Below are positions 125 through 42,905 of a stretch of 64,000 bases of DNA, piece after piece. Source of the stretch: Candidatus Cloacimonadales bacterium (GTDB lineage Bacteria; Cloacimonadota; Cloacimonadia; G963667145). Location of the stretch: assembly GCA_965140615.1 (NCBI GenBank), contig OZ223280.1, positions 1,268,077-1,332,076 on the forward strand, given 5' to 3'. The notes under the pieces are model-generated. The model ran no database searches. It saw nothing but the letters and a program-made list of their open reading frames with translations, and was not told the origin of the DNA. The position numbers and the translations under genes are program-made. Within the stretch, counting starts at the first letter, position 1, and the number at the start of each line of letters is the position of its first letter.

Positions 125-1345
125 TGGAAACTCCACACTAAAAGTATCCACCCCAAGTTAGTGATTTGTAATTGGCTGGTTTATGATAAAATGGAAAAGT
201 TAATTAGAAAAATGGAGAAATAGTCTGTAAAAAAAATGGTCAAATCAGCCGTGAGAGCTGTAATTTGACCATTATGAATAAATATATAGACAATCTGAAA
301 ATTATGAGTAGAAAAGACAAGAAATTTTATCGGAAAAATTTGGTGAAATTTGCAAATGAAACATCTATTTCCGATGCAGCTAGAGAATTTGAAACCACTA
401 GAAAAACTGTGCGAAAGTGGGTCAAAGCCTATAAAGAAAAGGGCGAGGATGGTCTGGTTAATAAATCTCGAAAAGAGCAAAATTTCCCAAATCGCTTAAA
501 ATCTGAGATAATAGAGGAAATAGTAGTTTGTCGCAAAAAGGCAAAAAATCGCTGGGGAGCTAGGCGAATTATTGACCATTTACAGTTAAATTGTTCAGCT
601 TCAACTGTTCATAAAAAGCTCTGTGATGCTGGTTTGGTAAAGAAAAAGAAACGGAAATATCAGCAACGCAAAGATTTAAGTGAAATGCGAGCTAGGGCAA
701 AACCTTTTGAAAAAATCCAAGTGGATATTAAGTATTTGACCGATATGCCAGAATTGTTTGAGGGGATTAAGTACAAAAATTATCCTCGCTATCAAATCAC
801 TGCTAGAGACTACAAAACTGGCATGCAATTTATCGGTTATTGCTATGAGAAAACAGCCGTAAATGCAGGGATTTATATCGATTTTTTGTCTAAAAGATTA
901 AAGAGTTGTGGTGTTGATCTTTCCAAAGTTACTTTTCAGACCGACAATGGCTCAGAGTTTGTGAGTCCGAAGAAAAAGGGTATGAGCTTTTTTCAAAAAA
1001 GTGTGCAAATAAATGGTGCTAATCATTCGCTTATCCCTAAAGGTTCGCCTACTTTTAATTCGGATGTTGAGAGTGCTCATCGGCTGGTAGAGGATGAGTT
1101 TTATCTGATTGATGAATTTGATGATTGCAACGATTTTGTGCGTAAAGCACACAGTTATACGCTGTATTTTAACCATTTAAGAGGAAACAGAGGGCGAAAA
1201 GGTAAGACTCCGAAGCAAATTTTGCGGGAAAATTCTAGGAAGCCCAATTTTAATGTTTTGAACATTAGCCCAATAATCACAGATTATTATTTAAAAGATA
1301 TAGAAAAAATAAATAAGGGTGGATACTTTTACTGTGTACCGCCCA
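125..1345 (+). mobile_element. IS element copy A, about 1221 bp with a single DDE transposase ORF (IS481-like by organisation). Imperfect terminal inverted repeats: left TGGAAACTCCACACTAAAAGTATCCACCCC, right (reverse-complemented) GGGCGGTACACAGTAAAAGTATCCACCC. Flanked by a perfect 15-bp direct repeat.
   Basis: Three near-identical copies in the window share the same ends (…GGAGTTTCCA / GTGTACCGCCCA) and diverge immediately outside them. Copy A is flanked by TGAAGTTGTAATTTA at 110-124 and at 1346-1360. Confidence 0.8.
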
Positions 1346-2511: not shown

Positions 2512-4140
2512 ATGAAAAAAAGAATGATGTTATTTTGGTTGATGGCTTTGAGTGCTCTTATGTTTTCTTGTTTTGACTCATCTACCAGTAGTTCAGACAG
2601 CAGTTCAGATTCTGACGATGGTTCTGGGAGTACAGAAAAGATTTCGGTAACTTTGTCGGCTCCAGCGAACGGTGCGAAAGACCAGATGTTGAGTGTGGGA
2701 TTATCTTGGAGTGGTGATGCTACTAGCTATGATTTGTATGTAGGGAGCTCATCTGAAAGTATGGATTTAAAGAAAGCAGATATTATTGGTACGAGCTATA
2801 CTTTGTCTGGGTTGGAGGTTAGCACTAATTACTGTTGGAAGTTGGTGGCTAAGAAAAGTGGATGTGAAGATGTGACTAGCGAAGTCTGGAGTTTCACTAC
2901 TGGGAATTATGGAGTGAGTTTGGCATCTCCAGAAGCAGGTGGAAAAGTATATCAAAAAGAGGTAGAGTTAACTTGGAGTGGTAATGCTGATAGTTATGAT
3001 CTTTATATAGGAACGACTGCTGAAAATATGGTTTCAAAGCAGGGTTGGTCAACCAACAAGAGTTACACATATACGCCAGATTATGGCACTTATTATTGGA
3101 AAATTGTCGGTAAATTTGGGACTAAGATTATAGAAACAGCTGTTAATAGCTTTACGACTGTTGAGCTAACTAGAGCGGAGCTTGATGTTTTAGTTGCTTC
3201 TGGTGTAGATCTTTCTAAAAATGTGGATGTTTCTGGTGTTACCGATATGAGCAATCTTTTTAAGGATAGAGCAACTTTTAATGATGATATTAGTGGTTGG
3301 GATGTGAGTAATGTTACTAATATGTCAGGTATGTTTAATGGAGCAACTGCTTTTAATCAAGAGATTGGTGGTTGGACTGTGAGTAATGTTACTAATATGT
3401 CAGGTATGTTTAATGGAGCAACTGCTTTTAATCAAGAGATTGGTGGTTGGACTGTGAGTAATGTTACTGATATGTCAAATATGTTTAAGCTAGCTTCTTC
3501 TTTTGATAAACCTATAGGAGGCTGGGATGTGAGTAAAGTTACTAATATGTTAGGAATGTTTATGAATGCTTCTTCTTTTGATAAGCCTATAGGAGGCTGG
3601 GATGTGAGTAAAGTTACTAATATGCTAGGTTTATTTAGTGGGGCGACAAACTTTAATCAAGATATTAGCGGATGGATTACTGAAAGTGCTACAACAATGG
3701 ACTGCATGTTTGCAAATACAGAAAATTTTAATGCGGATATTAGTGGTTGGAATGTGAGTAAAGTTGAGCAGTTTGGTTATATGTTCATTAATGCAAAATC
3801 TTTTAATAGAGATCTTAATAATTGGGATGTTTCTAGTGCTAAAGGAATGGGACGTATGTTTAGTAATGCAGTAAAATTTAATTGTGATTTGGATAAATGG
3901 AATGACAAAGTGGGTAATGTTACCTATATGCGTGAGATGTTTTCTGGTGCGACAATTTTTAATGGAAACATCTCTGGTTGGAAAACTGAAAATAATAAAA
4001 GCATGACAGGAATGTTTGAAAATGCTACTAGTTTTAATCAAGACCTTAGTGGCTGGGATGTAAGCAGCTTAGAAGAATATGATGACTATGATAAAGGTAT
4101 TGAAAGCACATGGACATTGGCTAGGCCGAATTTTAATTAA
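2512..4140 (+). CDS. BspA-family / DUF285 repeat surface lipoprotein. It has a signal peptide with a lipobox-like ..LMFSC, a Ser/Asp-rich linker, two ~85-aa duplicated domains and about 11 copies of the ~25-aa GWDVSxVTNMxxMF repeat.
   Basis: Repeats [24 protein letters not shown] and similar. The N-terminal [24 protein letters not shown] is followed by [15 protein letters not shown]. Confidence 0.75.
3304..3453 (+). repeat. Two perfect tandem 75-bp repeats inside the BspA-like gene; a further near-identical 75-bp pair lies at ~3494-3640
   Basis: 3304-3378 and 3379-3453 are identical 75-mers, each encoding 25 aa in frame. Confidence 0.85.
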
Positions 4141-10353: not shown

Positions 10354-12708
10354 ATGAAAAGATTTATTAAGATTTTTATTATAATACTTTTTTCGCAAGG
10401 TATCTTGTGGTCGGCTGCTCAAAATGCACCTATCAACACCAAATTTGATAGCGAAGCGAAAAGGACAGCTTGGTGGAAAGGGCTGGAGTATCAGTGGAAG
10501 CTGACTTTCAATGAGCTACTGGGTAATGGGAAAACTGTCAAAAAGCCTAAAGATAGTTTTTTGCAAGGGCTACTAAAAAGAACTACGCTTTTTTTGTATG
10601 GGTATGGACTTACCAACATTAGTGGATTGTCTGAACTCGATCATCTGGAGAATATAAATTGTTCTTACAATAAAATCTCTAGCATAAAAGGTATAGAAAA
10701 TCTGGTAAACCTAAAGGAATTAAAGCTAAGCGACAATCGTATAACTTCTTTGCAACGCCTAAAAAACCTCAAAAAGCTGGAATATCTGCGAGCCGATTTT
10801 AACGACCTGCACGACCTTAAAGGGCTGGAGAATTTGCTTAATCTTAGGCGAGTGTATGTGAAGCGGAACTTTATCTCGTCGATCGAGCCTTTGGCGAATA
10901 AGCCTCTTTTGGAGGAGCTATCCATTAGCTACAACAAGATTGTCTCTTTGCAGCCGCTTCGCACTAGCACCAAGCTGAAGATTTTGCTGGTGCAACACAA
11001 TCTGCTGACGGACATCAAAGGGCTGGAAAGGCTGGTGAATTTGGAGCGAGTCTTCATCTTTAAGAACCGATTAACAAGCCTAGAGGGCGTGCAAAACCTC
11101 AAGAAGCTGAAAGTTTTTATGTTCTCGCAGGAGAGTGAAATTTTGCCTGAGGCAGAAAAGGAGAAAGTAAGGAAATTTTTTGCTCGAAAAAAGGCTTTTA
11201 GGTTTGGAATTGGTGGTGGATTGTTGGTGTTGTTTTGTTTAGCATTTTTTGGCTACATTTTGATAAACATTGCCAAGAGAGTAAAAAGACGCAAAGAACG
11301 AAGGAAAGAGTTTTTGCGGTTGCGGAAACTTTTTGAAAACCAAAAGGCGTCGTTTTTCGATAATAAAAAGCGACTTTACCAGTGGTGGAACAACTTGGAT
11401 GAGCAGTGGAAACGGATTTTTAATGTGCAACTGGACAACGGAAGCTCTTTGTTCTTTCCCCGAGAAGATGAGCTACGGATGCTGGTAAATAGTCGCTTTT
11501 TTAGGATGCGAGGCGACAATCTGACCAATCTTGGGGGACTGAGGAACTGCACAAAGTTGGAGCGACTTAGCTTTTACAACGAGGGTCCAAGATTTTTGAA
11601 GCTGTTTTCCGACTTAAACTTTTTAGCAAGATTTTCTGTCTTGAAGAAGATCGAGTTTTCCACAAGAGATGTGCAAAAAATCAAAAACTTTGCAAGGCTG
11701 GAAAAGATGTTCGAGATCGTAGTGCCAGCAAGCGAAATCCCTTATACTGCCAAGGGAAGTTTTATTGATGTATCTGATGATATACAAGTGCGTTATAAGT
11801 ATCCTATTGTGGCTATCGGCAACTTTGAGGGGTTGCACCTTGGGCATGCCAAGATACTCAATCGCCTCTACGCTAGAGCTGAGGACACAGGAGGAGAGGC
11901 TTTGGTGCTGACCTATAGAGTGCATACTCGGGAGCATTTCCTCAAGAAGGGGAACAAGCCAATAGCACCTTATATGATTTTGGAGAAAGATCACAAAGAG
12001 AACTTGCTATTTCATAAGTTTGGGGTGCACTCCATCTTGTATCTGGATTTTGAGAATCAGGTGGTAAACCTTACAGCCGAAGAGTTTTTTGAAGAGATTT
12101 TGATACGGAAGTTGCATATCAGGGAGATAGTTTGCGGACACGACACCAGATTTGGCAAAGATAGGAAGGGCGACTACAAGCTGTTGACAGAGCTGGCAAA
12201 GCCCTATGGGATACACATCCGCTTGGTAGATCCACTGATGATGGGTGATGAGATAGTATGTAGCAGATTGATCCGCCAGAAGATAGAAAATGGCGACATC
12301 AACGGGATTAAGCGGTATCTCTCGCGGAATTATTCGATAGTGGGTACTGTAGAGGCAGGGCGGAAGATTGGAGGGAAGCTGGGGTTTCCCACTCTGAACC
12401 TAGAGCCCAAGCAGGCATACAAGCTTTACCCAGCACAAGGGGTGTACATAACGCACACCAAGATAGGCAACAAGGGTTACTACGGTTTGACCAACATAGG
12501 GTTTGCCCCGACGGTGAGGCAAGATATTAAAAAGAAAACAATAGAAAATTACTTGCACAAATTTAGTGGTTCGCTTTATGGACAAGAGGTGAAAATCGTG
12601 TTTTTGCAGTATCTGCGGGGCGAGAAGAAGTTTGCCTCCAAAAGTGATTTGGTGCAACAGTTGAAAGAAGATTTGAAAATGCTAAAGCAATATATAAGGG
12701 TGCATTAG
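10354..12708 (+). CDS. ribF: Fusion protein: signal peptide, leucine-rich repeats, one TM helix, a second LRR-like module, and a C-terminal riboflavin kinase / FAD synthetase (RibF)
   Basis: N-terminal LRR units (LxxLxLxxNxIxxI). TM segment FGIGGGLLVLFCLAFFGYILINI followed by KRVKRRKERRKE. The C-terminal ~310 aa (YPIVAIGNFEGLHLGHAKIL ... GDINGIKRYL...PTLNLEP) is a canonical RibF. No stop codon occurs between the modules. Confidence 0.7.
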   Translation: MKRFIKIFIIILFSQGILWSAAQNAPINTKFDSEAKRTAWWKGLEYQWKLTFNELLGNGKTVKKPKDSFLQGLLKRTTLFLYGYGLTNISGLSELDHLENINCSYNKISSIKGIENLVNLKELKLSDNRITSLQRLKNLKKLEYLRADFNDLHDLKGLENLLNLRRVYVKRNFISSIEPLANKPLLEELSISYNKIVSLQPLRTSTKLKILLVQHNLLTDIKGLERLVNLERVFIFKNRLTSLEGVQNLKKLKVFMFSQESEILPEAEKEKVRKFFARKKAFRFGIGGGLLVLFCLAFFGYILINIAKRVKRRKERRKEFLRLRKLFENQKASFFDNKKRLYQWWNNLDEQWKRIFNVQLDNGSSLFFPREDELRMLVNSRFFRMRGDNLTNLGGLRNCTKLERLSFYNEGPRFLKLFSDLNFLARFSVLKKIEFSTRDVQKIKNFARLEKMFEIVVPASEIPYTAKGSFIDVSDDIQVRYKYPIVAIGNFEGLHLGHAKILNRLYARAEDTGGEALVLTYRVHTREHFLKKGNKPIAPYMILEKDHKENLLFHKFGVHSILYLDFENQVVNLTAEEFFEEILIRKLHIREIVCGHDTRFGKDRKGDYKLLTELAKPYGIHIRLVDPLMMGDEIVCSRLIRQKIENGDINGIKRYLSRNYSIVGTVEAGRKIGGKLGFPTLNLEPKQAYKLYPAQGVYITHTKIGNKGYYGLTNIGFAPTVRQDIKKKTIENYLHKFSGSLYGQEVKIVFLQYLRGEKKFASKSDLVQQLKEDLKMLKQYIRVH

Positions 12709-36223: not shown

Positions 36224-37073
36224 CTGTGAGAAGTTTCAGGAGTTCTTCTTTTTGAGATTTTGATTGATACGAAAAGACGACCTTGCCCTTGCTATTGCTT
36301 CCTTGGACTTTCACGGAGACATTGTACTTATCTTTTAAGAGGTGCTCCAGCTGGGAGAAGTCTAGCTGAGCTTTTTTATTTTTAACGATTGTGGCAGAAG
36401 ATTTGACCAAAGACTCGCTGGCTCGCACAGATAGCCCTTTTTGGGCGATAGTGGCAGCGATAGCCTCTCGTTGCTCTGGCTCGGCTTGCATTATCACCTT
36501 GGCGTGTCCCATGCTTATCTTTTTTTGTAAGAGGAGCTCTCTTATGGAGTTCTCTAGGCTCAAAAGGCGAAGAAAGTTGGAGATAGTAGTACGGTCTTTG
36601 CCCATAGCGGTGGCTATCTCGCTGTGAGTGTAGTTGAACTCTTCTCGTAGCCTTTGGTAACTGGCAGCCTCTTCGATGGGGTTCAAGTTCTCTCGCTGAA
36701 CATTTTCGATGATAGCTAGCTGGAGCATCTGTTGTCTGGTAGCCTCACGGATGACTACGGGTACTTTTTCCAGATTTGCCAGTTTTGCCGCTTGTAGTCG
36801 TCGCTCGCCGGCTATCAGCTCGTAGCGACCTTCCTCTTGTTGAGTAACTATCAGTGGCTGGATGATGCCGTTCTCGATGATGGAGTCTCTGAGTTCTTCC
36901 AGTTTCTCTTGGTCGAAGTGCCGTCTGGGCTGATAGCGGTTGGGGAAGATAGATTTGGGGCTTAGCTCGTTTATGGGGCTAGCTTCTTGGTTGTCAGTCT
37001 CTTGGGATGTCGGTTTGAAGTCAACAGGCTTAATAAGGGCTTCCAAGCCACGACCCAGTTTTTTTTTGGTCAT
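36213..37073 (-). CDS. parB: Chromosome partitioning protein ParB
   Basis: GERRLQAAKLANLEKVPVVIRE, a ParB box / HTH. Confidence 0.9.
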   Translation of the reverse strand: MTKKKLGRGLEALIKPVDFKPTSQETDNQEASPINELSPKSIFPNRYQPRRHFDQEKLEELRDSIIENGIIQPLIVTQQEEGRYELIAGERRLQAAKLANLEKVPVVIREATRQQMLQLAIIENVQRENLNPIEEAASYQRLREEFNYTHSEIATAMGKDRTTISNFLRLLSLENSIRELLLQKKISMGHAKVIMQAEPEQREAIAATIAQKGLSVRASESLVKSSATIVKNKKAQLDFSQLEHLLKDKYNVSVKVQGSNSKGKVVFSYQSKSQKEELLKLLTDEK

Positions 37074-37825
37074 CGTGCTACCACCTCTTTGACTAGGTTT
37101 AGGTAATCTTGAGCTCCGCGAGAGGTGATGGCGTAATCAAAGATGGTTTGACCAAAGCTAGGAGACTCGCTGAGTTTGACATTTCTGGCGATGTAAGTTT
37201 TGAAAAGCTTATCGCCAAAGTAGTTTTTGACATCCTCTTCCACTTGCTGACTGAGGTTGAGCCTCTTGTCGTACATAGTCAGGAGCACGCCTAGTATCTC
37301 TAAGGTAGGGTTAAGGCTGTTTTGGATCAGCTTGATGGTGTTCAGTAGCTGGCTGACACCTTCCAAGGCGTAGTACTCGCATTGGATAGGCAATAGCACA
37401 TGGGTGCTGGCAGTCAGGGCGTTGATGGTCAGTAGTCCCAGCGATGGTGGGCAGTCGATGATGATGTACTCGTAATCTTCCAAGATGGGTTGTAAGGCGT
37501 TTTTTAGCTTTTGTTCACGGGCGTACTCTTTTACTAGCTCTATTTCCGCTCCAGTTAGGTTGATGTCCGCAGGCACTACATCCAGTTTTTTGTAGTTGGA
37601 TTTGACGATGCAAGACTTGATGCTTTTTTCCCCGATGAGCATTTTGTAAACTTGGCTATTGACTTTGCTTTTGTTTATGCCGATGCCCGATGTGGAGTTG
37701 CCTTGCGGGTCTAAATCTATGAGCAGGGTTTTCTTTTCGTAAACTCCCAAAGCTGCTGACAAGTTCACAGAGGTGGTGGTTTTGCCCACTCCACCTTTTT
37801 GATTGACGACTGATACTACTTTCAT
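37070..37825 (-). CDS. parA: Chromosome partitioning ATPase ParA/Soj
   Basis: KGGVGKTTTSVNLSAALG, a deviant Walker A motif. Confidence 0.9.
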   Translation of the reverse strand: MKVVSVVNQKGGVGKTTTSVNLSAALGVYEKKTLLIDLDPQGNSTSGIGINKSKVNSQVYKMLIGEKSIKSCIVKSNYKKLDVVPADINLTGAEIELVKEYAREQKLKNALQPILEDYEYIIIDCPPSLGLLTINALTASTHVLLPIQCEYYALEGVSQLLNTIKLIQNSLNPTLEILGVLLTMYDKRLNLSQQVEEDVKNYFGDKLFKTYIARNVKLSESPSFGQTIFDYAITSRGAQDYLNLVKEVVAR

Positions 37826-37875
37826 AACCGTCCTTTCTATTTTTTTGGTTAATATTTTCTTGGTTCAGTTACAAG

Positions 37876-38969
37876 TCAAGATGTTTTTGTCGTCTTTCTG
37901 GGCGGTACACAGTAAAAGTATCCACCCTTATTTATTTTTTCTATATCTTTTAAATAATAATCTGTGATTATTGGGCTAATGTTCAAAACATTAAAATTGG
38001 GCTTCCTAGAATTTTCCCGCAAAATTTGCTTCGGAGTCTTACCTTTTCGCCCTCTGTTTCCTCTAAAATGATTAAAATACAGCGTATAACTGTGTGCTTT
38101 ACGCACAAAATCGTTGCAATCATCAAATTCATCAATCAGATAAAACTCGTCCTCTACCAGCCGATGAGCACTTTCAACATCAGAATTAAAAGTGGGCGAA
38201 CCTTTGGGGATAAGCGAATGATTAGCACCATTTATTTGCACACTTTTTTGAAAAAAGCTCAAACCCTTTTTCTTGGGACTCACAAACTCTGAGCCATTGT
38301 CGGTTTGAAAAGTAACTTTGGAAAGATCAACACCACAACTCTTTAATCTTTTAGACAAAAAATCGATATAAATCCCTGCATTTACGGCTGTTTTCTCATA
38401 GCAATAACCGATGAATTGCATACCAGTTTTGTAGTCTCTAGCAGTGATTTGATAGCGAGGATAATTTTTGTACTTAATCCCCTCAAACAATTCTGGCATA
38501 TCGGTCAAATACTTAATATCCACTTGGATTTTTTCAAAAGGTTTTGCCCTAGCTCGCATTTCACTTAAATCTTTGCGTTGCTGATATTTCCGTTTCTTTT
38601 TCTTTACCAAACCAGCATCACAGAGCTTTTTATGAACAGTCGAAGCTGAACAATTTAACTGCAAATGGTCAATAATTCGCCTAGCTCCCCAGCGATTTTT
38701 TGCCTTTTTGCGACAAACTACTATTTCCTCTATTATCTCAGATTTTAAGCGATTTGGGAAATTTTGCTTTTTTCGAGATTTATTAACCAGACCATCCTCG
38801 CCCTTTTCTTTATAGGCTTTGACCCACTTTCGCACAGTTTTTCTAGTGGTCTCAAATTCTCTAGCTGCAGCGGAAATAGATGTTTCATTTGCAAATTTCA
38901 CCAAATTTTTCCGATAAAATTTCTTGTCTTTTCTACTCATAATTTTCAAATTGTCTATATATTTTTTCA
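37876..38969 (-). CDS. DDE transposase (copy B); ORF terminates in flanking DNA ~50 bp upstream of parA
   Basis: MKKYIDNLKIMS... nearly identical to copies A and C. The C-terminal tail ...VPPRKTTKTS is flank-encoded. Confidence 0.75.
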
Positions 38970-38975
38970 TAATGG
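37899..38975 (-). mobile_element. IS copy B (older copy), body from the right end to its own start codon. Its left end, 40198-40355, has been displaced by insertion of copy C.
   Basis: Right end GTGTACCGCCCA (reverse complement at 37899-37910). The body is co-linear with copies A and C and is interrupted immediately upstream of its ATG. Confidence 0.7.
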
Positions 38976-40057
38976 TTGGGCGGTACACAGTAAAAGTATC
39001 CACCCTTATTTATTTTTTCTATATCTTTTAAATAATAATCTGTGATTATTGGGCTAATGTTCAAAACATTAAAATTGGGCTTCCTAGAATTTTCCCGCAA
39101 AATTTGCTTCGGAGTCTTACCTTTTCGCCCTCTGTTTCCTCTAAAATGATTAAAATACAGCGTATAACTGTGTGCTTTACGCACAAAATCGTTGCAATCA
39201 TCAAATTCATCAATCAGATAAAACTCGTCCTCTACCAGCCGATGAGCACTTTCAACATCAGAATTAAAAGTGGGCGAACCTTTGGGGATAAGCGAATGAT
39301 TAGCACCATTTATTTGCACACTTTTTTGAAAAAAGCTCAAACCCTTTTTCTTGGGACTCACAAACTCTGAGCCATTGTCGGTCTGAAAAGTAACTTTGGA
39401 AAGATCAACACCACAACTCTTTAATCTTTTAGACAAAAAATCGATATAAATCCCTGCATTTACGGATGTTTTCTCATAGCAATAACCGATAAATTGCATG
39501 CCAGTTTTGTAGTCTCTAGCAGTGATTTGATAGCGAGGATAATTTTTGTACTTAATCCCCTCAAACAACTCTGGCATATCGGTCAAATACTTAATATCCA
39601 CTTGGATTTTTTCAAAAGGTTTTGCCCTAGCTCGCATTTCACTTAAATCTTTGCGTTGCTGATATTTCCGTTTCTTTTTCTTTACCAAACCAGCATCACA
39701 GAGCTTTTTATGAACAGTCGAAGCTGAACAATTTAACTGCAAATGGTCAATAATTCGCCTAGCTCCCCAGCGGTTTTTTGCCTTTTTGCGACAAACTACT
39801 ATTTCCTCTATTATCTCAGATTTCAAGCGATTTGGGAAATTTTGCTCTTTTCGAGATTTATTAACCAGACCATCCTCGCCCTTTTCTTTATAGGCTTTGA
39901 CCCACTTTCGCACAGTTTTTCTAGTGGTCTCAAATTCTCTAGCTGCAGCGGAAATAGATGTTTCATTTGCAAATTTCACCAAATTTTTCCGATAAAATTT
40001 CTTGTCTTTTCTACTCATAATTTTCAAATTGTCTATATATTTGTTCATAATGGTCAA
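38933..40057 (-). CDS. DDE transposase (copy C); ORF reads through the IS end into copy B sequence
   Basis: MTIMNKYIDNL... 374 aa. The C-terminal tail ...VPPNHYEKIYRQFENYE is encoded by copy B DNA. Confidence 0.8.
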   Translation of the reverse strand: MTIMNKYIDNLKIMSRKDKKFYRKNLVKFANETSISAAAREFETTRKTVRKWVKAYKEKGEDGLVNKSRKEQNFPNRLKSEIIEEIVVCRKKAKNRWGARRIIDHLQLNCSASTVHKKLCDAGLVKKKKRKYQQRKDLSEMRARAKPFEKIQVDIKYLTDMPELFEGIKYKNYPRYQITARDYKTGMQFIGYCYEKTSVNAGIYIDFLSKRLKSCGVDLSKVTFQTDNGSEFVSPKKKGLSFFQKSVQINGANHSLIPKGSPTFNSDVESAHRLVEDEFYLIDEFDDCNDFVRKAHSYTLYFNHFRGNRGRKGKTPKQILRENSRKPNFNVLNISPIITDYYLKDIEKINKGGYFYCVPPNHYEKIYRQFENYE

Positions 40058-40197
40058 ATTACAGCTCTCACGGCTGATTTGACCATTTTTTTTACAGACT
40101 ATTTCTCCATTTTTCTAATTAACTTTTCCATTTTATCATAAACCAGCCAATTACAAATCACTAACTTGGGGTGGATACTTTTAGTGTGGAGTTTCCA
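38976..40197 (-). mobile_element. IS copy C (complete, 1222 bp) nested in copy B, flanked by a 15-bp near-perfect direct repeat
   Basis: Same ends as copy A. The flanks are ACCATTATGAAAAAA (38961-38975, reverse complement) and ACCATTATGAATAAA (40198-40212, reverse complement), with one mismatch. Confidence 0.75.
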
Positions 40198-40355
40198 TTT
40201 ATTCATAATGGTCAAATTACAGCTCTCACGGCTGATTTGACCATTTTTTTTACAGACTATTTCTCCATTTTTCTAATTAACTTTTCCATTTTATCATAAA
40301 CCAGCCAATTACAAATCACTAACTTTGGGTGGATACTTTTAGTGTGGAGTTTCCA
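40198..40355 (-). repeat. Displaced left end of IS copy B: left IR, leader and the first 3 codons
   Basis: 158 bp matching the left-end leader of copies A and C (…TGGAAACTCCACAC…GACCATTATGAATAAA). Confidence 0.7.
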
Positions 40356-40478
40356 GAGTTGACAAATTTTTCGATTGACAGACAAACCAGAGGCAAGAGG
40401 AATAGTCAAATGTAGATAAATTGTGGTAGGGTGTGAATATTTTTTTTAAAAACAAGAGGTAAGTAATAAATTTAAAAG

Positions 40479-42905
40479 ATGAACAAACAAAAGAAAATAG
40501 GAATTTTACTGAGTGTTTTTGGTAGTCTGGAGGTGGTGATAAACTCCTTGCTGGCTACCTCTTCTTTTGGGTTTAGGCAAGATTTGGTTTCTGGTCTGGG
40601 GTTGTCTTTTCCCACTTTTTGGGTTGTCTGCTCTTTGTTGCCTGTGGCTGGTCTTTTGGTTGCTTCTGGAAAAGTCTGGACGAAGGAGAAGAGCGAGTTG
40701 TGCTCGCTAGCTGTAGCTCAAGAGCCTGTGATGCCGGAGCATCTTATTAGTAGGGGTAAGGAACTCAAGGTTTTGCAAAAGAGGCTGAAGCGAAAAAATA
40801 TCGTGCTGATAGGTGGAGAAAAAAGTAGCGGAAAAAGTTTGCTTGCGGCAGAGTATTACGACAAGATGAAAGGCTACTACAAAGAGCGTTACTGGATTGG
40901 AGCTCAAAAAAGTATCGAAGAGTCGTTTTTGCGGTTTGGTGAGGAGCAGATTTTAGTGGGTAATGAGCAAAAACTTCCTGAAAAAAAAAGATTAGAGCGG
41001 ATTTTTGATAAGTTTGCAAAGCTTGAAAATTCTTTGCTGGTGGTGGACAATCTGAACGATGCTAGGCAAATGAAGATTTGCCTTTCTTGGTTAGAGAGGT
41101 GCAATAATTTGCAGGTGCTGATAACTACTCGCCTTCCTGAATTTCCAAATGTGGAGTATTTTCAGCTAGAGAGCCCTAAGTTGCGAGCTTGTCTTAAGCT
41201 TTTCAAAAAGCATTGTTCCAAGTGTAAGCCGAAAAAGATGCTGAAAGAGGTCGTTGAAAACTTAGGTAACAATGTTTTTTTAGTGCAGTTACTTGCCAAA
41301 AATTTGCAACACAATAGGAAACGAGACTCTGAATATACCTTATCCAATATGGTGGAAGATTTGCACAACGGTTTGCTGACTCTGGGCAAAAGTAAGAAAG
41401 TTGCGACAAAGAACAACGCTGGAAGTGATAAGCTCCAAGTTCGGCAGTTAGAGGAGCTGGTGATGGCTGTTTATGATGGCATGGATTTGGCAGAGCAAGA
41501 AAAGACATTACTTTCAGTTTTTGTTGTCTTGCCTAGCGAAAATATCGCGTGGCAATTTTTGGAAAGAAGTTACGGTGATGAGGGAGTGGAGAAGCATCTT
41601 ATGAGTTTGACAAAAAAAGGGCTTCTCAATTGGGACGAAAAAAGAAAGATTGTGTCAGTCTGCTCGCTAGTGGCAGAGGCAGTCGCTCATTTGCATAGAG
41701 ATAGGACTTTCGACGATTGCAAACCGATGTTGGAGCAGATTAGCCAGCAACTTTTTGGTAAAGAGATACTATCGGCTAAAAAGGCGAGATATAGCCAGCT
41801 TTTGCTTAGGTACACTTCGAGCGTAATGAAAGAGTTAGATGGACAAGGCAAAGAGATTGCTGTTTTGCATGGAGCTTTGGGGAACTATTACAAAAATGTG
41901 GGCGATTTGTCGTCTTCTTTACCTTCATACGGTAAAGCTTGTTTGATTTTTGAAGATTTGTGCAAGGGAAGTACCTCTAACCAAGACCTCAAGTACAATC
42001 TGGCAGTCTCTTATTATAAATTGGGAGCGATACACAAAGAATTGGAAAATGCGGTTAAAGCTCTGAAGTGTTTTGAGCTTAACACCAAACTCAACAAAGA
42101 GTTGTACGACGCTTATCCGCAAAATAGTTCTGTGCAAAGCAATTTGGCTTACTCTTTTGATTTACTGGGATTGATGCACAAGGAGTTGGATAATATGCAA
42201 AAGGCTCAAGTTTGCTACGGGAATTGTTTGAAATTGGTCGAGGAACTTTGTAGAACATTACCGCAGGAAAGTTCTTTCAAGAAGAGGTTGATAAAATCGT
42301 ATGAAAATCTGGGTGATATTCACAAAACAAGAAAAAATTTTAATCAAGCTTTGGAATGTTTTGAAAAGGGGACGAGGCAGGCTTTAAAGGTTTGTGAAGA
42401 GTTTGCAAAAGATGTCTCTGCCAAAAAAGATTTGGTGCAGTTATTTTCCAAGTTGGGTTTGTTGCAGATGAGCTTAAATCGGGTTGATCTGGCAGTTAGG
42501 TGCTTTAGCAGAGAGAACGCGTTGTATCGGCAGATGCATAAAAAAAACCCCAAAGAGCTTTTTTGGAAGCAAGGCTTAGCTGTTTCTTATGAGAAGTTGG
42601 GCACCATGCAGTCCAAATTGGGCGAACTGGACAAGGCACAAAAGAGCTTCGAGCAAGAAGTGTCTTTGTTTACCCAGCTTTGTAAATCTTTCCCACAAGA
42701 TGCGAACCTCGAAAACGGACTTGCTGTTTCTTATGCCAAATTTGCGACATTTTATCGAGCAAAACGCAAAGACACTCGACAAGCGCGGCACTATTTCGGC
42801 AAAGCTAAGTCGTTGTGGGGCAATCTGGTGGGACAATTTCCACAGAATCAGTTGTTTAGCAAGTTCTTGAGCAATGTGGAGAGGGATTTGCACAGGCTTA
42901 GGTAG
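40479..42905 (+). CDS. Membrane-anchored STAND NTPase: two N-terminal TM helices, an NB-ARC-type P-loop NTPase domain and C-terminal TPR repeats
   Basis: TM helices IGILLSVFGSLEVVINSLLATS and LSFPTFWVVCSLLPVAGLLVASG. Walker A VLIGGEKSSGKS. Walker B SLLVVDNLND. RNBS-B-like LQVLITTR. About 10 TPR-like units (..LAVSYEKLGTMQSKLGELDKAQKSFEQ..). Confidence 0.65.
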   Translation: MNKQKKIGILLSVFGSLEVVINSLLATSSFGFRQDLVSGLGLSFPTFWVVCSLLPVAGLLVASGKVWTKEKSELCSLAVAQEPVMPEHLISRGKELKVLQKRLKRKNIVLIGGEKSSGKSLLAAEYYDKMKGYYKERYWIGAQKSIEESFLRFGEEQILVGNEQKLPEKKRLERIFDKFAKLENSLLVVDNLNDARQMKICLSWLERCNNLQVLITTRLPEFPNVEYFQLESPKLRACLKLFKKHCSKCKPKKMLKEVVENLGNNVFLVQLLAKNLQHNRKRDSEYTLSNMVEDLHNGLLTLGKSKKVATKNNAGSDKLQVRQLEELVMAVYDGMDLAEQEKTLLSVFVVLPSENIAWQFLERSYGDEGVEKHLMSLTKKGLLNWDEKRKIVSVCSLVAEAVAHLHRDRTFDDCKPMLEQISQQLFGKEILSAKKARYSQLLLRYTSSVMKELDGQGKEIAVLHGALGNYYKNVGDLSSSLPSYGKACLIFEDLCKGSTSNQDLKYNLAVSYYKLGAIHKELENAVKALKCFELNTKLNKELYDAYPQNSSVQSNLAYSFDLLGLMHKELDNMQKAQVCYGNCLKLVEELCRTLPQESSFKKRLIKSYENLGDIHKTRKNFNQALECFEKGTRQALKVCEEFAKDVSAKKDLVQLFSKLGLLQMSLNRVDLAVRCFSRENALYRQMHKKNPKELFWKQGLAVSYEKLGTMQSKLGELDKAQKSFEQEVSLFTQLCKSFPQDANLENGLAVSYAKFATFYRAKRKDTRQARHYFGKAKSLWGNLVGQFPQNQLFSKFLSNVERDLHRLR

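Follow-up and report, generated by a model that had tools for sequence, protein, structure and literature searches.

A 64,000-nt stretch of the 1.556-Mb chromosome of a Candidatus Cloacimonadales bacterium (contig OZ223280.1; hereafter the window) contains three copies of a 1,221-bp insertion sequence (IS), which we designate A, B, and C, two of which form a nested array immediately upstream of the parAB genes. The original prediction, made from the sequence alone, described this array as a complete copy C lodged in an older, co-oriented copy B, and both the order of the pieces and the reconstruction of B bear this out. The nested array is genuine but unremarkable by itself, being a routine by-product of IS expansion in a small genome. 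What is worth following beyond this ordinary pair is that the IS clade to which the element belongs shows a fixed-register, orientation-specific association with −35 promoter hexamers. We consider it very likely that these three elements of the picture hold together, namely that C is a true nested insertion, that the lineage targets −35 hexamers in a fixed register, and that B is a recombined hybrid.

Results

Many insertions lie in a fixed register to TTGAC(A/T)

A homology search with a single transposase as query returned two distant partial matches in genome contigs and none in metagenomes; the same search with an alignment of 26 homologues returned 80 loci. Ends could be defined at 29 of these, which together with A, B, and C of the window gives 32 insertions. 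A strict search for target duplications together with inverted repeats retrieved only three loci (L007, L018, and L051). Because the two flanks of most short contigs do not match each other, the target rule was analyzed on right flanks alone.

In these flanks, the right end of the IS is followed by 15 nt, which correspond to the duplicated target, then by 4 nt, and then by TTGAC(A/T), in a single orientation. Of the 32 insertions, 17 have TTGAC starting at flank position 20, two at position 19 or 21, and one elsewhere, for a background of 0.001 per position (P ~2e-42 for the excess at position 20). At these 17 sites the base after TTGAC (position 25) is A in 14 cases and T in three, and the base before it (position 19) is C in 12. 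Further into the flank, position 47 is T at 15 of the 17 sites and positions 43–46 are A rich (P ~2e-6), which looks like a putative −10 element placed 16–17 nt past the −35. Eleven of the 17 sites are followed by a co-directional open reading frame (ORF) with a Shine-Dalgarno–like motif, whose start lies 62–131 nt into the flank. The elements that obey the register are 38–100% identical to those of the window and come from many different samples, those from metagenomes being only 38–54% identical.

The three local copies conform to the same arrangement. The right flank of A reads TGAAGTTGTAATTTA, AGGG, and TTGACA (1,365–1,370), upstream of rplU, while that of B consists of 15 nt, 4 nt, and the conserved −35 hexamer of parA, TTGACT. 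C sits in this register with respect to a near-cognate hexamer, TAGACA, which occupies IS positions 163–168 of B and is present in every copy of the element. The right flank of the related element in L007 is again in the same register. Since the parA hexamer is also present in relatives that are free of the IS (see below), it is target sequence rather than part of the element. The same motif is thus found at the same distance and in the same orientation at independent insertions and in an empty site. Judged from these sequences, the lineage associates with −35 hexamers in a fixed register and in one orientation, which accounts for the positions of all three local copies.

The register also leaves its mark on the transposase. 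Because TTGAC in register supplies an in-frame TGA, the ORF ends exactly seven residues after the conserved ...CVPP. Such seven-residue tails are found in 13 of 27 transposase variants of the two closest clusters (P0001 and P0002), when 3% are expected (P ~2e-13), and in many homologues that are only 40–55% identical; the TGA of TTGAC serves as stop codon in at least 16 of 74 metagenome loci. When the target was compared by eye with the ends of the IS, as in IS30-style targeting, no convincing similarity was seen.

The hexamer is underrepresented in the window, where TTGAC[AT] occurs 53 times for ~75 expected from composition, and CTTGACA occurs three times for 9.35 expected from shuffles. In one locus (L079), the target promoter is followed by GCCCCGTTAGCTCAGTTGGT, which resembles the 5′ portion of a tRNA gene truncated where the contig ends; ARAGORN called no tRNA in this right flank.

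C is a complete element nested in B

All coordinates are positions in the 64,000-nt window, and the array is read on the minus strand (Table 1). Excising C together with one copy of the flanking 15-mer restores a B of 1,221 bp, colinear with A and C, whose 364-codon ORF is intact. C is thus a complete guest, flanked by a duplication of host-IS sequence, in a host that is restored on excision. The original prediction placed C in the start codon of B. Its position at the translation start of B stands, since that codon lies within the duplicated 15-mer, but the insertion point is after codon 3 (ATG AAT AAA, then C) and not within the start codon itself. The coordinates given earlier were likewise correct, except for the end of C, which falls at 38,977 and not at 38,976. 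Exactly six inverted-repeat cores, three left and three right, are found in the window, and none in shuffled sequences. The inverted repeats match at ~23 of their first 30 positions and include a perfect 15-nt core, AAAAGTATCCACCC, the core sequence shared by the element copies being CACWSTAAAAGTATCCACCC. The guanine-plus-cytosine (GC) content of the IS copies is 35%, compared with ~45% in their surroundings. GC skew is strongly positive (0.12–0.32) in all 4-kb bins of the window regardless of gene strand, except for the bin that holds the B/C array, where it is −0.01.

The 15-mers on either side of C (ACCATTATGAATAAA and ACCATTATGAAAAAA) are identical at 14 of 15 positions, as had been claimed. 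The mismatch is at IS position 155, where A and the left 15-mer have T, the right 15-mer has A, and C has C; because A and the left copy agree, T was the original base, and the right 15-mer acquired its A once C had inserted, while C carries a change of its own. A perfect 15-bp duplication is found around copy A (at 110–124 and 1,346–1,360), as it is around the related elements of L007, which is 72.6% identical and comes from a sister genome, and of L018 and L051, which are more distant. A single 14-bp duplication was seen, in L021. With a true stagger of 15 bp in A, L007, L018, and L051, the 15-mers around C, which match at 14/15, qualify as a genuine target duplication. By contrast with C, and as also noted originally, B has no target duplication, its two 15-nt flanks showing no match. 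B and C differ from each other at 10 positions, and 14 differences are private to A. The latter include those behind the SDAA, GMSFF, and NHLRG variants of A (SAAA, GLSFF, and NHFRG in B and C), which confirms that B and C are closer to each other than to A. In the 1,539,614-bp sister genome, fragments of other transposase genes (Transposase_mut and DUF772; L007 1–2,317) precede the related element, which points to an IS-rich patch.

The transposase suggests a divergent IS481-like element

Each copy encodes one long ORF (360–371 residues in A, B, and C) with an N-terminal helix-turn-helix region and an rve/DDE core. In the 371-residue protein the domains are HTH_32, HTH_28, HTH_23, and rve_3, and the catalytic residues D151, D224, and E266 are invariant in the alignment of 26 homologues. 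The ORF of C has no stop inside the IS, crosses the right end of C, and ends 43 nt into B. The best NCBIfam match is NF033577 (transpos_IS481; E 5.5e-46), which covers residues 22–315 and profile positions 4–282 of 284, with a score of 157 bits that is below the curated cut-off of 224 bits; the next-best family profile, IS3, is much weaker (77 bits). The nearest annotated plasmid genes found by tblastn are "IS481 family transposase" genes with 26–29% identity. The tips of the element are TGG...CCA, and some members of the clade (L051, L019, and L032) begin with TGT. The range that ISfinder gives for target duplications in the IS481 family, 2 to 15 bp (cited in PMC10045372), includes the 15-bp duplications of A, C, L007, L018, and L051. 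We therefore class the element as a predicted divergent IS481-like, single-ORF DDE transposon, on a deep branch of the IS481 family or next to it.

The element is present in many copies. A 90%-identity cluster of its transposase comprises 44 distinct sequences; each of the 18 members listed belongs to the 1.556-Mb chromosome of the window, which has at least 44 copies. The variants in the cluster differ mainly downstream of ...GGYFYCVPP. The transposases of A and C (from the TTG start, 374 residues in C) and the ParB of the window are exact entries of this same chromosome.

Relatives reveal an empty site and a synteny break at B

We compared the locus with five relatives (L003, L004, L005, L008, and L009) whose ParB is 79–89% identical to that of the window; the nearest named relatives of ParB and of the permease described below are Cloacimonadota, with about 50–70% identity. 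In all five, a Xan_ur_permease gene adjoins parA, which is followed by parB, an M23 peptidase gene, a bactofilin gene, and Dus, and in the three that were scanned for tRNAs (L003, L004, and L005) a tRNA-Val(GAC) lies just past the permease. The element was not found at the locus in any of the five. In L003, L004, and L005, the −35 block of parA is present and IS free, so that the comparison proposed originally as a check did yield the empty site.

Homology on the parA side extends to within a few bases of the right end of B, and homology on the other side, toward a divergent gene encoding a TPR protein, ends at the left end of B. The spacer left between B and this gene matches the TPR–tRNA-Val spacer of the relatives up to the IS boundary. 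Neither tRNA-Val(GAC) nor the permease gene is present in the 64-kb window, and an Rfam scan of the window retrieved only one tRNA and no known RNA in the array. An orthologue of the permease (P0264) with 87% identity, to be compared with 89% for ParB, is nevertheless located on the same 1.556-Mb chromosome, which indicates that the tRNA-Val/permease segment was relocated and not lost; on this ground a simple deletion of ~1.8 kb at B was rejected. The segment thus appears to have moved away from parA by recombination among IS copies, and the lack of a duplication around B would follow from its left and right flanks stemming from different original insertion sites. This supports the earlier suggestion that a later rearrangement explains the missing duplication, since it is at this point that the relatives hold tRNA-Val and the permease. 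The left junction of B did not fit a canonical insertion at the tRNA-Val promoter: in the alignment with L003 and L004, the TTGACA of that promoter lies 18–20 nt past the junction instead of 4 nt past a 15-mer.

The TPR protein is a predicted STAND-type ATPase. Its gene is present in L003 (2,779–5,211) and L004 (2,681–5,119) and absent at the same position in L005 and L008, a patchy distribution that marks it as a variable gene. Two TTGACA hexamers on the plus strand, 16 nt apart (40,359–40,364 and 40,375–40,380), face this gene, the first starting 3 nt from the left tip of B in a non-canonical register; they may simply be the TPR promoter region. Elsewhere, a 7-kb linear contig (L006 1–7,048; ERZ25074360 ctg20136_40x_l) carries an inverted duplication of a block consisting of partial parA, parB, M23, bactofilin, and Dus, which probably reflects either an error of long-read assembly or a molecule that is palindromic.

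The putative parA promoter is left intact

The −35 hexamer of parA begins 19 nt past the right end of B. The promoter block is conserved in L003, L004, and L005, and the sequence farther upstream is not. Its hexamers, spacing, position, and conservation are those expected of a putative sigma-70-type promoter. As predicted originally, the ORF of B, which has no stop of its own, ends 50 nt upstream of parA in the same orientation; its start codon is kept in the duplicated 15-mer but is severed from its own leader. Between the IS and parA, the minus strand has no predicted terminator-like site, which makes read-through from the IS into parAB possible. With the promoter intact and the 15 bases upstream of it retained, parAB need not depend on the IS, so that such read-through would be possible but not needed.

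Table 1. Positions of the IS copies, their target sequences, and neighboring genes in the window
Feature	Position	Strand	Details
Copy A	125–1,345	+	1,221 bp; complete element, opposite orientation to B and C
Bactofilin gene	35,549–35,196	−	
M23 peptidase gene	36,223–35,570	−	
parB	37,073–36,213	−	
parA	37,070–37,825	−	AAA_31/CbiA ATPase; ATG at 37,825
Putative parA promoter	37,851–37,879	−	−35 TTGACT (37,879–37,874), 17-nt spacer, −10-like AATATT (37,856–37,851); 9/12 match
Transposase ORF of B	37,876–38,970	−	364 residues from ATG; stop TGA (37,878–37,876) is the TGA inside the parA −35 TTGACT
15 nt abutting the right end of B	37,884–37,898	−	GAAAGACGACAAAAA; target-duplication position, with no partner on the left side of B
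Copy B, right piece	37,899–38,961	−	1,063 nt; body and right inverted repeat, end ...CCGCCCA at 37,899
Transposase ORF of C	38,933–40,057	−	TTG start 40,057 or ATG 40,048 (371 residues); stop 38,935–38,933
Near-cognate hexamer TAGACA	38,952–38,957	−	TTGACA with one mismatch, after TATA spacer (38,961–38,958); canonical register of the lineage
Right copy of the target duplication	38,962–38,976	−	ACCATTATGAAAAAA; holds the start codon of B (38,970–38,968)
Copy C	38,977–40,197	−	1,221 bp; complete IS481-like element with both inverted repeats, inside B
Left copy of the target duplication	40,212–40,198	−	ACCATTATGAATAAA; made by C, last 15 nt of the left piece of B
Copy B, left piece	40,198–40,355	−	158 nt; left inverted repeat (TGGAAACTCC...) and leader through ATGAATAAA
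Left flank of B	40,370–40,356	−	AAAATTTGTCAACTC; 15 nt
Leftover spacer	40,356–40,478		From the left end of B to the divergent TPR/STAND-like gene; synteny break point
TPR protein gene	40,479–42,905		808 residues; weak NB-ARC/nSTAND3/AAA_16 matches

Other features of the window

Two ORFs outside the array were also noted. The first (2,512–4,140) encodes 542 residues matching PARCEL-repeat surface lipoproteins (NCBIfam NF045896 and TIGR02167) and contains eight in-register tandem repeat units of 75 nt (3,200–4,057); the TTGACA at 2,440, upstream of this ORF, is unoccupied by the IS. The second (10,354–12,708) encodes 784 residues and matches RibF (riboflavin kinase/FAD synthetase) only in residues 473–782, no family being identified for the N-terminal 470 residues. 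This may reflect a gene fusion or an ORF that was called too long.

Discussion

The best account of these observations is as follows. A 1,221-bp IS made a 15-bp staggered cut in an older copy of itself, duplicating the 15-mer that contains the start codon. The transpososome would recognize the hexamer, which flanks the target on one side only, and cut 4 and 19 bp away from it, and C would have chosen its site because the TAGACA of B is a near-cognate hexamer in the same register. At a canonical site, insertion ~19 bp upstream of the −35 combined with the 15-bp duplication would keep the native upstream sequence, the promoter, and the downstream gene intact, and the transposase gene, having no stop of its own, would end at the TGA of TTGAC with a seven-residue tail. 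Finally, recombination among at least 44 copies would have joined the two flanks of B, moving tRNA-Val(GAC) and the purine permease away from parA. We go further and propose that this IS481-like clade, from Cloacimonadota-related and other uncultured bacteria, might be a dedicated promoter-upstream integrator, which would read TTGAC(A/T) or the polymerase bound to it, insert 19 bp upstream in one orientation with a 15-bp stagger, and use the TGA of the −35 as its stop. On this broader proposal our confidence is evenly balanced.

Several points weigh against the main account. Among the 32 insertions with defined ends, 13 do not follow the rule, mostly distant elements or doubtful end calls. In the window, 51 other TTGAC[AT] sites are unoccupied, which means that the hexamer alone does not determine insertion. 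The site of C has neither the preferred C before the hexamer nor the −10-like T, and the left junction of B is outside the canonical register with respect to the tRNA-Val promoter of the relatives. In many short metagenome contigs, the left and right flanks of the IS are mismatched even though the right flank still obeys the TTGAC rule, which probably reflects chimeric assembly across multi-copy elements (among L010–L089). The transposase shows no match to Sigma70_r4, even at E values up to 10. Moreover, the rule is derived from insertions that have survived selection and not from fresh transposition, and just three of the at least 44 copies in this genome (A, B, and C) are readable.

That the copies are found where they are could, in principle, reflect survivorship, with near-random insertion followed by persistence of only those harmless copies that lie upstream of promoters. 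Such a process would enrich for sites that resemble complete promoters, as these do (−10-like T at 15 of 17 sites, downstream gene at 11 of 17), and would leave other hexamers empty, as the 51 unoccupied sites are. What selection cannot fix is a single-base register together with a single orientation (position 20 in 17 of 32), because insertions in the reverse orientation, at different distances, or behind genes would be admitted as harmless too. Besides, C, whose hexamer has one mismatch and belongs to another IS, obeys the register in a place where there is no such host selection, and the L007 site has no co-directional downstream gene. Selection alone is therefore a very improbable explanation. 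We are less dismissive of guidance by a protein, in which the transpososome would dock on the RNA polymerase holoenzyme or on sigma at the −35, as Ty3 does with TFIIIB. This would be in keeping with the fixed promoter distance, the single orientation, and the co-conserved −10-like element, and the transposase has no recognizable extra DNA-binding domain to explain how TTGAC is read. However, the C site (TAGACA inside an ORF, with no −10-like element) and the L007 site (no downstream gene) make poor promoters, and the 17 register sites—which were selected for TTGAC—show an invariant TTGAC and no degenerate −35, an invariance stricter than real promoters usually show. On balance we find protein guidance unlikely, and direct reading of the hexamer by the transposase more probable.

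The array itself could be questioned on two other grounds. At least 44 near-identical copies are the kind of repeat at which assemblers fail, and an expansion or mis-joining would then have created the pair. Yet C is an exact insertion with both inverted repeats and the 15-bp duplication also seen in A, L007, L018, and L051, its excision restores B, and it obeys the register of the lineage. The 10 differences between B and C show that they are not a single copy entered twice. The sequence comes from one contig of 1.556 Mb, and the circular contigs of sister genomes ("ctg6955c" and "ctg24561_899x_c") look long-read, by name only. An assembly artefact is, in our opinion, hardly credible. The same can be said of tandem dimer formation or unequal crossing-over as the origin of the pair. 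Several IS families are known to pass through dimers whose ends abut, and recombination among copies is evident at this locus, where B has no duplication. But the order found is left end, left end, body, 15-mer, and body, with the right end of C followed by codons of B and the leader of B followed by the left end of C, so that the right-end/left-end junction expected of an (IS)2-type dimer is not present; a target duplication is obtained from the nested parse only. Transposition of C into B hence remains the reading that we retain.

To our knowledge, a long, asymmetric target in fixed register is rare among bacterial DDE insertion sequences. In the literature searched we found none that is tied to a −35 promoter element, nor any report of −35/TTGACA targeting, of a target-supplied stop, or of this IS, the paper on 15-bp duplications (PMC10045372) being the only relevant one; this negative does not extend to ISfinder and does not prove novelty. 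If the transposase reads TTGACA directly, it would constitute a compact, orientation-specific, gene-sparing integration system and a clean model for an rve-type transposase that measures 19 bp with a 15-bp stagger. If promoter-bound polymerase is read instead, bacterial transposition would be linked to transcription initiation. In practical terms, the rule predicts that copies are located ahead of genes and in the orientation of these genes, explains why annotated transposases vary in their C-terminal tails, and warns that such copies may feed read-through into essential operons, for example parAB or rplU.

Comparison with known systems highlights both similarities and differences. Duplications of 15 bp have been reported for ISMac4, ISA0963-1, and the eukaryotic IS481EU (PMC10045372). 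Like these IS481 members, the element has one DDE/rve ORF with an N-terminal helix-turn-helix, a length of ~1.2 kb, inverted repeats, and a 15-bp duplication. Unlike them, it scores below the profile cut-off (157 versus 224 bits), is only 26–29% identical, and has TGG...CCA tips instead of the usual TGT...ACA; neither fixed-distance −35 targeting nor a target-supplied stop was described for 15-bp-duplication IS481 members in the literature searched. With IS481 and IS1002 of Bordetella pertussis, it shares the broad family, a high copy number in a reduced genome, a sequence-specific target, and rearrangements between copies. The Bordetella elements duplicate 6 bp at NCTAGN, whereas the present element duplicates 15 bp and has its motif beyond the duplication, after another 4 bp and on one side only. 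Frequent effects on neighboring transcription are reported for the Bordetella elements (PMC6161684). As in nested IS of other IS-rich genomes, which are common at high copy number, a complete guest is flanked by a duplication of host-IS sequence, but here one element acts as both guest and host, the two copies are co-oriented, and a near-cognate site explains the position. Since every copy carries TAGACA at positions 163–168, the same nesting could recur.

If the promoter-upstream integrator is real, it would represent, among bacterial DDE transposons, the promoter-proximal safe-site strategy known from yeast Ty3 and Tf1. Ty3 at Pol III start sites, Ty1, Tf1 at Pol II promoters, and Tn7 at attTn7 all insert at a fixed or narrow distance and spare genes, although only the principle is alike. 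The former are long terminal repeat retrotransposons that use host transcription factors, and Tn7 relies on TnsD binding glmS, all of them being unrelated or distantly related to the present element, a small bacterial IS found 19 bp upstream of a sigma-70 −35 hexamer. Also comparable are the IS5 and IS1 copies upstream of the bgl, flhDC, and fucAO promoters in Escherichia coli, which likewise are IS copies that alter or preserve expression. These cases are selected activating events in structurally favored regions; their duplications are short, and their register to the −35 is not fixed. In the present clade, diverse as it is, the register is exact and conserved.

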